DNA from: Thermoanaerobaculia bacterium
GTDB taxonomy: Bacteria; Acidobacteriota; Thermoanaerobaculia; UBA5066
Assembly (NCBI GenBank): GCA_963816185.1
Contig: CAWFJJ010000006.1
Span: 1,326 to 65,325 of the forward strand
Length of the DNA stretch: 64,000 bases
Reading direction: 5' to 3'
Part shown: piece after piece, positions 16,726-18,386 of the stretch
Layout: each line of letters begins with the position of its first letter
Numbering within the stretch: the first letter of the stretch is position 1
Program-made: the position numbers and the translations under genes
The notes under the pieces: generated by a model
What the model was told of the DNA's origin: nothing
Databases searched by the model: none
What the model saw: the letters and a program-made list of their open reading frames with translations, nothing else

Positions 16726-16914
16726 ATGAAGAAGAACACGAAGAAGACAGCCTCCAAGGCAAAGGGGCCCAAGGCGACGAAGAATCTCGACGTCAAGCCC
16801 GCCAAGGGCGCGAAGGTCCGTGGTGGAACTGTAAACAAGGGGTGGATCGAAGTTTCATCCTTCAGTTTTAATGCGGAACCCACCGTCAGTGTGACCGCGA
16901 AGAAGCCGTCCTGA
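16726..16914 (+). CDS. precursor peptide P10 (62 aa); leader MKKNTKKTASKAKGPKATKNLDVKPAKGAKVRGG + core TVNKGWIEVSSFSFNAEPTVSVTAKKPS
   Basis: Matches ORF-track 16726..16914; long Ser/Thr-rich core; its stop overlaps the GT41 gene start (TGATG). Confidence 0.7.
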   Translation: MKKNTKKTASKAKGPKATKNLDVKPAKGAKVRGGTVNKGWIEVSSFSFNAEPTVSVTAKKPS

Positions 16915-18386
16915 TGAGCACCGGCTGGCCGAAGGGCTGCCGCATGCTCGCGGCGGGCAAGTATGCGAGCGGCCTCGCGGCCTTCGAACCGGCCGTCCGG
17001 GCGAGTCCGGACTCTGCGGCCGCACGATTCCACCTCGCCCGGGCGAGCTTCGCCCTAGGGGAGGTCGAGAGGGCGACCCGGCAGCTTCGGGCGGCACTCC
17101 GGATCCGCACGGATATCCGAGCTCTGCGGTTCCTGGCCACGATCGCCCCGTTCGACCCGCGCCTCGACCACGCGGCGATCCTGAAGGTCCGCCGCGCGCT
17201 GGCCGCTGCGGTTCGCGCTCGAACCGTCGCGCCCGCCAGGGCGATCGTCGTCGGGAGCCCGGCCAGGAAAGTGCTCAAGGTTGGCTACGTCTCGTCTTTC
17301 TTCGACAAGGACAACTGGATGAAGCCGGTGTGGGGGCTGATCGATCACCACGACGCCAAGAGGGTGGAGATCCACCTTTTTGCCGACGTGCCGCGCGTTT
17401 CTGCGGTGCGTCGGCGGGCGCGTGCGAGCGCGGCGCACGTCCACGACATCTCGCGCCTTGACAACGATGTGGCCGCGCGGCTGATCGCCCGGACGGGGCT
17501 CGACGTCCTCGTGGATCTCAATCAGTACAGCCGGGTCGGCCGGATGCCGCTTTTTTCGACCAGGCTGGCGCCGGTCGTCGTCGCGTGGTTCAACATCTTC
17601 GGGACCTCGGGAATGCCGGTTTTCGACGCGCTGATCGGCGATCGATGGCTCGTCCGCGACGTCGAGAAGCCTTGGTACCTCGAAAAGATCGTGAAACTCC
17701 CGTTCTCGTCGCTGACTTTCGCGGTGGACTATCCGGTCCCTGACGTCGGGCCGCCGCCTTTCTTGCGCAACGGCTTCGTCACGTTCGGAAGTCTTTCGTC
17801 GCTGTACAAGCTCAACGACGGCGTCGTCGGCACCTGGGCCGACATTCTGAAGCGGAGCCCGGGAAGCCGTCTTCTCCTGGGCAATGCGGATCTGGGAGAC
17901 CCCGGCAACCGAGCGCACACTCTCGAGCGATTCACCGCGCGCGGGATCGAGCCCGCGCGCGTCACGTTGCTCGGGCCCGACGAGCACTACGAGTTTCTCC
18001 GAAACTACGACGCGATTGACCTCGCTCTCGACACGTTCCCCTACAACGGAGGCACGACGACCACCGAGGCGATCTGGCAAGGAGTCCCGGTCGTCGCGTT
18101 CTTGGGGGACCGGTGGATCTCGCGTACCAGCGCCTCCCTGCTGGAAAACGCCGGTCTTGAGGGCTTCGTCAGCCGGGACGTCCGCGGTTATGTCGAAACG
18201 GCCGTCCGGTGGGGGTCGGGAGCAAAGGCGGAAGAACGGAGAGAGCTCCGCCGCACGATGAGGAAACGCCTGAAAGCCTCACCCGTCACCGACTGCGCGA
18301 GCCTCGCGCGCTGCATCGAGGACGCTTACGTCCAATTGTGGGGCGCGAGGACTCGCTCCGCTCTCCCTCAGCGGATGACAGCGTGA
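16914..18386 (+). CDS. TPR-repeat + GT41-family (O-GlcNAc transferase / SPINDLY-like) glycosyltransferase
   Basis: 490 aa. N-terminal TPR-like helices; C-terminal DTFPYNGGTTTTEAIWQGVPVVAFLGDRWISRTSASLLENAGL matches the recalled OGT (GT41) C-terminal catalytic signature (DTFPYNGHTTT..LWMGVPVVT..G..FASRVAASLL). Embedded inside the precursor array and translationally coupled to P10. Confidence 0.8.
   Translation: MSTGWPKGCRMLAAGKYASGLAAFEPAVRASPDSAAARFHLARASFALGEVERATRQLRAALRIRTDIRALRFLATIAPFDPRLDHAAILKVRRALAAAVRARTVAPARAIVVGSPARKVLKVGYVSSFFDKDNWMKPVWGLIDHHDAKRVEIHLFADVPRVSAVRRRARASAAHVHDISRLDNDVAARLIARTGLDVLVDLNQYSRVGRMPLFSTRLAPVVVAWFNIFGTSGMPVFDALIGDRWLVRDVEKPWYLEKIVKLPFSSLTFAVDYPVPDVGPPPFLRNGFVTFGSLSSLYKLNDGVVGTWADILKRSPGSRLLLGNADLGDPGNRAHTLERFTARGIEPARVTLLGPDEHYEFLRNYDAIDLALDTFPYNGGTTTTEAIWQGVPVVAFLGDRWISRTSASLLENAGLEGFVSRDVRGYVETAVRWGSGAKAEERRELRRTMRKRLKASPVTDCASLARCIEDAYVQLWGARTRSALPQRMTA

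Follow-up and report, generated by a model that had tools for sequence, protein, structure and literature searches.

What does a glycosyltransferase of family GT41, the family that includes O-GlcNAc transferase (OGT), do in the middle of an array of small peptide genes? The question is raised by a 64,000-nucleotide stretch of contig CAWFJJ010000006.1 (assembly GCA_963816185.1) from a Thermoanaerobaculia bacterium, here called the window and numbered from its first nucleotide. In it, a GT41 gene on the + strand (16914..18386, 490 aa) directly follows the gene for a 62-residue precursor peptide, P10 (16726..16914, +), which consists of a Lys-rich leader and the core TVNKGWIEVSSFSFNAEPTVSVTAKKPS. 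An earlier interpretation of this DNA made without database searches (the sequence-only reading) had described the enzyme as a tetratricopeptide repeat (TPR)-GT41 protein and had suggested that it glycosylates the peptide. We found that the enzyme and the peptide encoded upstream of it form a conserved two-gene module, which strengthens the proposed functional link between them, and we assess below what the enzyme may do to its partner and where the peptide cores come from.

The identity given to the enzyme was borne out by profile and PDB sequence searches. Its open reading frame (ORF) matched Pfam PF13844 (Glyco_transf_41; E 3.6e-35, with 121.7 bits where the cut-off is 25) and, over residues 12-75, TPR_19 (E 5e-9), and in a phmmer search of PDB sequences residues 15-482 aligned to the OGT-like protein of Thermobaculum terrenum (TtOGT, 5DJS; E 9.4e-60), the next matches being Arabidopsis SPINDLY (SPY), Xanthomonas XcOGT and human OGT (hOGT); the whole catalytic domain could be aligned to all four. 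The TPR part is short (~2-3 repeats, ~60-100 residues), the catalytic domain begins after ~115 residues, and no signal peptide or membrane segment was apparent on reading the sequence. Tyr298-Lys299 is invariant in 27 orthologs and 120 aligned relatives, in which a 'PYNGGTTT' loop is also kept; the former aligns with Lys842 of human OGT, which we take to be UDP-binding, and the latter (NG-x-TT) is presumably the phosphate-binding loop. Family membership and intact nucleotide-binding motifs are thus evident at the sequence level, and on the reading that we favour the protein is a glycosyltransferase of the cytoplasm, in which a short TPR part precedes the GT41 catalytic domain. Donors differ within the family: OGT uses UDP-GlcNAc, SPINDLY GDP-fucose and the N-glycosyltransferases (NGTs) UDP-glucose.

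One active-site column departs from the characterised enzymes. The position of human OGT H498, a residue whose catalytic role is debated, is His in TtOGT and SPINDLY and Asp133 in the window enzyme. This column is variable across the whole large uncharacterised 'FFxxxNWMKPVW' clade, paralogs included. We considered whether loss of the His is peculiar to the peptide-linked enzymes and rejected this, given that it is clade-wide and extends to long-TPR paralogs.

The GT41 gene is translationally coupled to P10: the P10 stop codon (TGA, 16912-16914) shares one base with the GT41 start codon (ATG, 16914-16916), and the resulting TGATG (read ccgtccTGATGagc), noted already in the sequence-only reading, is also present in the relative L001, whose GT41 is 84% identical. 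The P10 core is indeed rich in Ser/Thr (8 of 28 residues, 29%), lacks both Cys and an N-x-S/T sequon, and includes the motif KGWIEVSSFSF. Inside the core DNA, at 16838-16871 just 5' of the GT41 start, a hairpin precedes a stretch that is T-rich and unusually AT-rich (CAGTTTTAAT). Its 16838-16862 portion is the only terminator-like site on the + strand of the array, none being found between mini-genes, and it could attenuate read-through into the GT41 gene.

Pairing of enzyme and peptide was consistent across Acidobacteria. GT41 homologs fell into two groups, one of short-TPR proteins (477-574 aa) that are 52-84% identical to the window enzyme, the other mostly of long-TPR paralogs at 49% or less. 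In all ortholog loci at 52% identity or above with enough upstream DNA (the window, L001/L005, L002, L003, L004, L006, L007/L008, L009-L011, L012/L016, L014 and L015), the gene directly upstream encodes a Lys-rich [KR]GG peptide with a K/E-W-I/V-E/D core. The sole ortholog locus without an upstream peptide was L013 (51% identity), and none of 71 paralog loci had such a peptide within 2.6 kb upstream or up to the contig end. The cores in question read TVNKGWIEVSSFSF... in the window, EVRHTDWIEIQSTQW... in L001, TGGGGTKKVVKGWIDI in L008, SFSFGGKPINQEKWIESAPSFGAKVTR in L004, ...GPKGWID and ...GHEKWID in L003, variants of ...HEKWIE... in L006, L012/L016, L014 and L015, and RKREWV or KKREWV in L009-L011.

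The closest genomes, metagenome-assembled genomes of Thermoanaerobaculia (Acidobacteriota), share more than the pair. Relatives at 80-84% GT41 identity have in common the full layout of peptidyl-prolyl isomerase (PPIase), peptidase-containing ABC transporter (PCAT), HlyD, enhancer-binding protein, peptides, GT41, peptides and Cys-rich protein. At 52-59% there are only the peptide(s) and GT41, and up to 10 kb around them contain neither an exporter nor a Cys-rich gene; in particular, the pairing holds without a PCAT or Cys-rich gene within 10 kb in L003, L004 and L006. The leader of the cognate peptide differs as well, being of the type MVAKK...[VI][KR]GG in L008 (5840..5983) and the more distant loci and of the array type in the window and L001, which suggests a change of leader on entry of the module into the array. 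Since the pairing persists without PCAT or Cys-rich genes and with a different leader type, what is constant is the enzyme and the core motif, not the leader, and the GT41 gene with its KWIE-type peptide would be an older two-gene module later taken into the array.

The simplest account of an enzyme-peptide pair that is conserved and translationally coupled is that the enzyme glycosylates the peptide, and we regard this reading as about equally likely to be right or wrong. Several observations weigh against it. The TPR region is short; with Asp133 in place of the H498-equivalent His, activity or mechanism may differ from those of known enzymes; the HlyD gene of the window looks frameshifted; and distant GT41 loci have no exporter nearby, so that the terms 'leader' and 'secretion' are perhaps out of place for the ancestral module. 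Moreover, what is conserved in the GT41-adjacent cores is K/E-W-I/V-E/D, with no Ser, Thr or Asn position conserved among them, and the shortest ones, the six-residue RKREWV and KKREWV of L009-L011, contain none of these residues. The step taken in the sequence-only reading from a Ser/Thr-rich core to O-glycosylation is therefore weak and does not generalise. Because the cognate cores have no conserved Ser, Thr or Asn, the acceptor is perhaps in the leader, an unusual residue or part of another molecule; the core tail, the residue after GG (often Ser or Thr), the Ser/Thr/Lys-rich leader or a site elsewhere could each serve.

On the peptide-glycosylation reading we infer the further course of events, from core-motif recognition and sugar transfer to the peptide (residue and sugar included) to export of the product and its biological target, as follows. 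The sigma-54 promoter and adjacent activator would drive the whole array from its head. The GT41 would dock the peptide through the core motif, probably via the TPR groove, and would use a nucleotide-sugar donor to glycosylate its cognate KWIE-type member P10, perhaps also the peptide of 18607..18741, which ends in ...KWIE. Modified P10 would then join ~14 sibling precursors, to be bound through the shared leader by two Cys-rich enzymes that contain a RiPP recognition element (RRE; RiPP, ribosomally synthesised and post-translationally modified peptide), cut after GG by the PCAT and exported through the HlyD adaptor.

The array into which the module is set comprises 17 Lys-rich leader units from 12632 to 20910, of which 16 were detected as DNA repeats and one decayed unit (12773..) was read by eye. 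Fifteen are intact mini-genes and the first two are decayed (12632..12913, +; the first recognised as leader-like repeat DNA at 12635-12704, the second by reading the sequence and with a leader hidden Markov model, HMM): in one an in-frame TGA replaces the start region, and in the other (MKKTPKK...) the frame shifts within the leader. The leader consensus is MKKxTKKxxSKASxKKAVKNLEVKPAKGGTVRGG, with a VRGG end in 15 copies. Its ratio of non-synonymous to synonymous differences (pN/pS) was 0.42 in its own reading frame, whereas the two alternative frames gave 1.15 and 1.29, and the mini-genes are therefore probably translated.

The intact units, all on the + strand, are distributed around the larger genes. 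Precursor 1 (13191..13376; core GKAGSGRTTVSDLQISKVVDKSSAVLF) comes first, followed by eight mini-genes within 14606..16453 (14606..14737, 14748..14885, 15146..15286, 15374..15520, 15597..15734, 15997..16128, 16175..16306 and 16328..16453; leader HMM E 1e-15 to 1e-17 each), one with the core IHGGWDQLANKKV. After P10 and the GT41 gene there are four more, identified with the leader HMM and an HMM of Hcp (18607..18741, core SLPRQWKWIE; 18777..18908; 19169..19312; 19394..19537), the last two with the cores VHGGWDQIANKKI and VHGGWDQVGNKKY. The last precursor (20779..20910; core ATRLDKWPG; leader HMM E 6.6e-16) has a start that overlaps the stop of Cys-rich protein B.

Beyond it lies a relic of the GT41 3' end, its last ~45 codons (20998..21145, +), recognised as a DNA repeat and by protein alignment: DNA at 20974-21112 is 72% identical to 18217-18355 within the GT41 gene, and residues 35-82 of the relic ORF (20898..21149) are 60% identical to GT41 residues 444-486 (E 3e-14). 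The sequence-only reading had described a ~220-bp relic at 20930..21146 and concluded that the module was once duplicated. The relic is real GT41 C-terminus, of which only ~145-150 bp (~20998..21145) can be clearly aligned, and it tells only that the end of the array once held the 3' part of a GT41 gene, not that the whole module was copied.

A further repeat, a ~225-nt element in six copies (12968-13190, 14923-15145, 15773-15996, 16503-16725, 18384-18606 and 18946-19168), stands directly 5' of six mini-genes and is 87% conserved, above the conservation of the leader-coding DNA. RNAalifold folds it into several hairpins with three compensatory pairs, its core occurs once in L008, and it has no match in Rfam, a search of 12300-21300 returning only a single sub-threshold chance match. 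A structured 5' leader and a site of RNA processing are possible roles for this element.

The variable cores proved, by sequence comparison, to be pieces of Hcp, which forms the tube of the type VI secretion system (T6SS), a bacterial weapon, and P10 corresponds to its beta-2 strand (~21-39). The only PDB match of the P10 core was Hcp1 4W64 (residues 25-46), and that of precursor 1 (Hcp ~41-70) matched only Pseudomonas aeruginosa Hcp1 1Y12 (residues 47-70) and two fusion constructs of the same Hcp1. In Pfam, precursor 1 matched T6SS_HCP with E 0.0011, and the two cores concatenated did so with E 5e-10 over profile positions 17-67. Among single peptides of the window, L001 and L008, T6SS_HCP was the top Pfam match (E 1e-3 to 3e-2, at differing profile positions) and for all but one the only one, and Hcp was the only PDB family matched. 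We also scored each core against 200 of its own shuffles with the HMM, which was built from 118 natural Hcps. None of the 200 reached the score of precursor 1 (30.1 bits) or that of P10, which mapped to 21-39, and ~45 of ~90 cores outscored all their shuffles, jointly tiling Hcp profile positions 4-160 (window, 13191..20910; L001, 9498..14524; L008, 5840..8213). IHGGWDQLANKKV, VHGGWDQIANKKI and VHGGWDQVGNKKY match the Hcp C-terminus.

Consistent with this, a chimera assembled from cores and searched against 5.8 billion proteins matched natural 161-aa Acidobacterial Hcps over 98-99% of their length at 46-51% identity (E 5e-35), and the natural Hcps compared sit in canonical T6SS clusters (VipA/VipB-Hcp-ImpE-TssA-TssE-TssF-TssG). 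A leader profile search of 1.84 billion representative proteins returned only ~57 peptides, all of 43-81 aa, with Hcp-like cores such as FGDIKGESTDKDHKDWVV, DVHKGWIDVSSFSFGLSQTG..., LGELQISKVVDKSSAVLFQKC, RKAGEKPLEF, QTFMKIKLNDVLITGA, ...SLAFAKVAIEY and ...GGWDLTANKEA. Against one Hcp of Bryobacteraceae (P0302), the core of precursor 1 is identical at 23 of 27 positions and GGWDQ-type cores at 10-12 of 13 positions of the C-terminus (VHGGWDQIANKKI, 12 of 13). Comparison of the cores with the P0302 gene gave pS of 0.7-1.0, which is saturated, and pN of 0.1-0.2; the resemblance is therefore not due to recent DNA copying of that gene, the closest natural hcp, and we rejected such an origin. The three GGWDQ cores at 15146, 19169 and 19394 differ among themselves with pN 0.14 and pS 0.31 (pN/pS 0.44).

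Along the array, the fragments do not follow the order that they have in Hcp. Close relatives, with flanking genes that are 80-92% identical, carry different cores at syntenic positions, and so the cores are exchanged or fast-evolving. Some short cores (LPPGPPTYK, FPTPWKNKV, K..KIHI, PTAVE...) have no Hcp assignment. We tried the unassigned ones as out-of-frame or antisense translations of hcp and discarded this origin, as they scored no better than shuffles save for a borderline antisense match of SLPRQWKWIE (1/100). No T6SS Pfam family was found among the large window ORFs scanned up to ~55.7 kb or in the relatives' loci. That the array is an exported library of Hcp-copied peptides, each core a strand or loop that selection keeps close to Hcp, with its beta-2 member glycosylated by a dedicated GT41 and the whole acting on Hcp or T6SS biology, is a compound reading that we consider unlikely; if it were correct, the peptides might work as strand-mimic inhibitors or aggregators of assembly, as decoys of Hcp-binding factors or as signals resembling T6SS debris.

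The conserved pairing can also be understood without modification of the peptide. The GT41 might act on another substrate, such as a cellular or envelope protein, full-length Hcp or other array peptides, and the adjacent peptide would then be its partner, as an adaptor, pseudo-substrate inhibitor or regulator in the TPR groove. The conserved feature of the peptides is, after all, a motif of binding type, often C-terminal, and not an acceptor residue (...KWID, ...GWIDI, ...KWIEI, ...REWV), TPR domains often bind short C-terminal acidic motifs, the minimal cores offer no Ser, Thr or Asn, and many protein substrates are typical of OGT-family enzymes. We nevertheless consider a partner role rather unlikely: one-to-one adjacency with translational coupling is typical of RiPP enzyme-substrate pairs, the motif is internal in the window and P10-like peptides and followed there by a Ser/Thr-rich tail, and no candidate protein substrate is conserved beside the module. 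Another reading, in which the GT41 provides immunity or a counter-measure, by glycosylating the cellular target of the peptides or an Hcp with the same beta-2 epitope and thus protecting the producer or disabling an incoming tube protein, draws on the identity of the motif with the Hcp beta-2 strand, so that its recogniser could also bind Hcp, and on the immunity genes commonly embedded in bacteriocin arrays. It has no precedent, neither the window (large ORFs scanned up to ~55.7 kb) nor the 20-kb loci of the relatives showed a T6SS or hcp gene, and an enzyme whose sequence, as read, has neither a signal peptide nor a membrane segment is poorly placed to meet incoming Hcp, all of which makes it improbable.

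Finally, the array might have no dedicated function and be a graveyard of hcp fragments, split by a repeated leader/5'-UTR (untranslated region) element, with the GT41 as a passenger. Signs of decay exist in the two frameshifted leader units, the GT41 relic and the frameshifted HlyD gene; cores at syntenic positions differ strongly between relatives, and about half of the cores have no assignable place in Hcp. Against this stand the 15 leader-core fusions that are intact and in frame, every one of which has a stop codon and a Shine-Dalgarno-like sequence, the constraint on the leader in its own frame only and on the GGWDQ cores, the recurrence of the peptides in ~57 distinct clusters in public data with the same 43-81 aa range, a fragment order that does not follow hcp, and amino acid conservation of the cores relative to natural Hcp at saturated synonymous sites. 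The motifs of the exporter, the RRE enzymes and the GT41 are intact besides, and synteny is kept across genomes at 80-92% identity, so that we hold a passenger origin to be very improbable. Of these readings, peptide glycosylation by the GT41 is the likeliest.

The cluster looks, from its gene content, to carry the hallmarks of a RiPP system, namely a leader, an RRE enzyme and a GG-cleaving exporter. At its head lies a PPIase-like (SurA/Rotamase_2-like) gene (5634..7100, +; Pfam Rotamase_2 E 1.4e-5, just under the cut-off), found at the equal position in L001, L007 and L008. It is followed by the PCAT (7082..10264, +), in which Pfam identified two cNMP-binding domains, a C39 peptidase and the ABC membrane and ATPase domains; the catalytic Cys motif (QIDEMDCGAAS) and His motif (HWVVL) of the C39 peptidase are intact, and the protein is 91-92% identical in L001 and L008. 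The HlyD-type periplasmic adaptor gene (10265..11463, +) is apparently frameshifted near 10990, with the 400-aa ortholog of L001 matching 10265-10993 in one frame and 10987-11463 in another (tblastn); the change of frame at ~10987-10993 reflects a frameshift mutation, which would make the gene a pseudogene, or else a mistake in the assembly. Next comes a sigma-54 enhancer-binding protein (11485..12438, +, extent from ortholog alignment) with AAA+ and Fis-type helix-turn-helix domains (Pfam Sigma54_activat, E 2.7e-58; HTH_8) and no receiver.

Two Cys-rich maturase-like proteins are encoded within the array: A (13400..14542, +), with a weakly CxxCxxCC-like N-terminal part and a C-terminal RRE fold, is 90% identical to its L001 ortholog, and B (19538..20782, +) likewise has a C-terminal RRE. 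They are paralogs of ~380 aa, and it is in their structure models that the RRE fold is seen. Neither Pfam nor NCBIfam has a model that matches the family significantly (17 of 45 members weakly match PF03692, best E 0.025), its profile matched nothing among PDB sequences, and NCBIfam has no family for P10, a second precursor or the Cys-rich protein. At least 271 homologs were found at E 1e-5 or better among the scored candidates in public data, from Thermoanaerobaculia, Blastocatellia, Gemmatimonadaceae and others.

Ahead of the array, a sigma-54 -24/-12-like site (TGGAAC-N5-TTGCT, 12574..12589, +) has one mismatch to the consensus and is positionally conserved in L001 (9431-9446) as TGGAAT-N5-TTGCT. 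Across the whole window, matches to the sigma-54 consensus with up to two mismatches were not enriched (17 versus 13 expected from shuffles), and we give weight only to the one at 12574, on account of where it lies and of its counterpart in L001. No sigma-70 promoter-like site was found on the + strand within the array, the only one being at 21152-21181, just past the GT41 relic.

How does this system compare with those already described? The GT41 is closest to bacterial OGT homologs. It shares with TtOGT (5DJS), XcOGT (2JLB/2VSY) and SPINDLY the arrangement of N-terminal TPRs and a GT-B GT41 catalytic domain, and differs from the OGT homologs in its ~2-3 TPRs, in having Asp133 for H498 of human OGT and in belonging to the 'FFxxxNWMKPVW' clade; its genetic coupling to a small peptide of its own has no counterpart among characterised GT41 enzymes. 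With the glycocins (sublancin/SunS, glycocin F/GccA, thurandacin/ThuS) the cluster has in common a ribosomal precursor with a GG-type leader, a glycosyltransferase in the cluster and export by a peptidase-ABC transporter. Glycocin enzymes are GT2 proteins of GT-A fold, and glycocin cores form helical hairpins that contain Cys and bear sugars in S- or O-linkage, whereas the sole glycosyltransferase of this cluster is a GT41 (GT-B and TPR) and the P10 core has no Cys, and hence neither defining feature is present. HMW1C and ApNGT are of the same CAZy family and modify bacterial secreted substrates. NGTs, which have no TPRs, act on the Asn of N-x-S/T sequons in large adhesins, whereas the enzyme here has TPRs, P10 has no sequon and none is conserved in the cognate peptides; the N-glycosylation of HMW1C type that the sequence-only reading had offered as an alternative is not upheld. 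Its remark that involvement of GT41 in a RiPP pathway would be unusual stands, in that our search of the literature and curated models brought up nothing that links GT41 to RiPPs, describes this leader family or notes Hcp-derived cores.

The array itself resembles the prochlorosins with ProcM, PCAT-exported GG-leader peptides and class II microcins in its tandem precursors with one leader, GG cleavage and PCAT/HlyD export, and the predicted recognition of that leader by an RRE-containing enzyme would be like that in multi-precursor RiPP arrays. It differs from these arrays in the fusion of a CxxCxxCC-like part to an RRE, in sigma-54 regulation and in cores that are fragments of Hcp. The cores match T6SS Hcp (PF05638; Hcp1 1Y12) segment by segment; with 6-33 residues each, at most ~30 Hcp residues per peptide, no complete ~160-residue domain and no nearby T6SS genes, the array peptides are not Hcp proteins. 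Two elements of the general definition of a RiPP, a precursor with conserved leader and variable core and an RRE in a modifying enzyme, are found here, and the system can be regarded as a RiPP-like cluster with a putative new family of tailoring enzyme and a predicted new RRE enzyme.

Bacterial GT41 enzymes are abundant and almost none has a known substrate; a clade with a hard-wired peptide partner offers a candidate enzyme-substrate pair that is directly testable. If the peptide is indeed glycosylated, GT41 would be added to the enzymes that tailor ribosomal peptides, and this would be the first peptide-dedicated GT41. The Cys-rich RRE-bearing enzyme family was previously undescribed. Secreted-peptide cores that tile the T6SS tube protein are unexpected, and we found no precedent for them; they point either to a new source from which precursor peptides gain their diversity or to peptides that interact with type VI secretion. 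Were the exported, Hcp-copied library real, it would amount to a new RiPP/bacteriocin principle, with cores templated on a competitor's or the producer's own weapon protein.

Some minor features of these loci may be recorded. Many apparent terminators on the minus strand were rejected as artefacts of Lys-codon repeats. A site similar to the sigma-54-type one follows the GT41 gene in L008 (7566-7581). Elsewhere in the window there are two genes for S9 prolyl-oligopeptidases and two for Ser/Thr kinases with PD40 beta-propeller repeats (2884..5133, -; 42290..44437, +; 37729..40425, -; 52937..55663, +).

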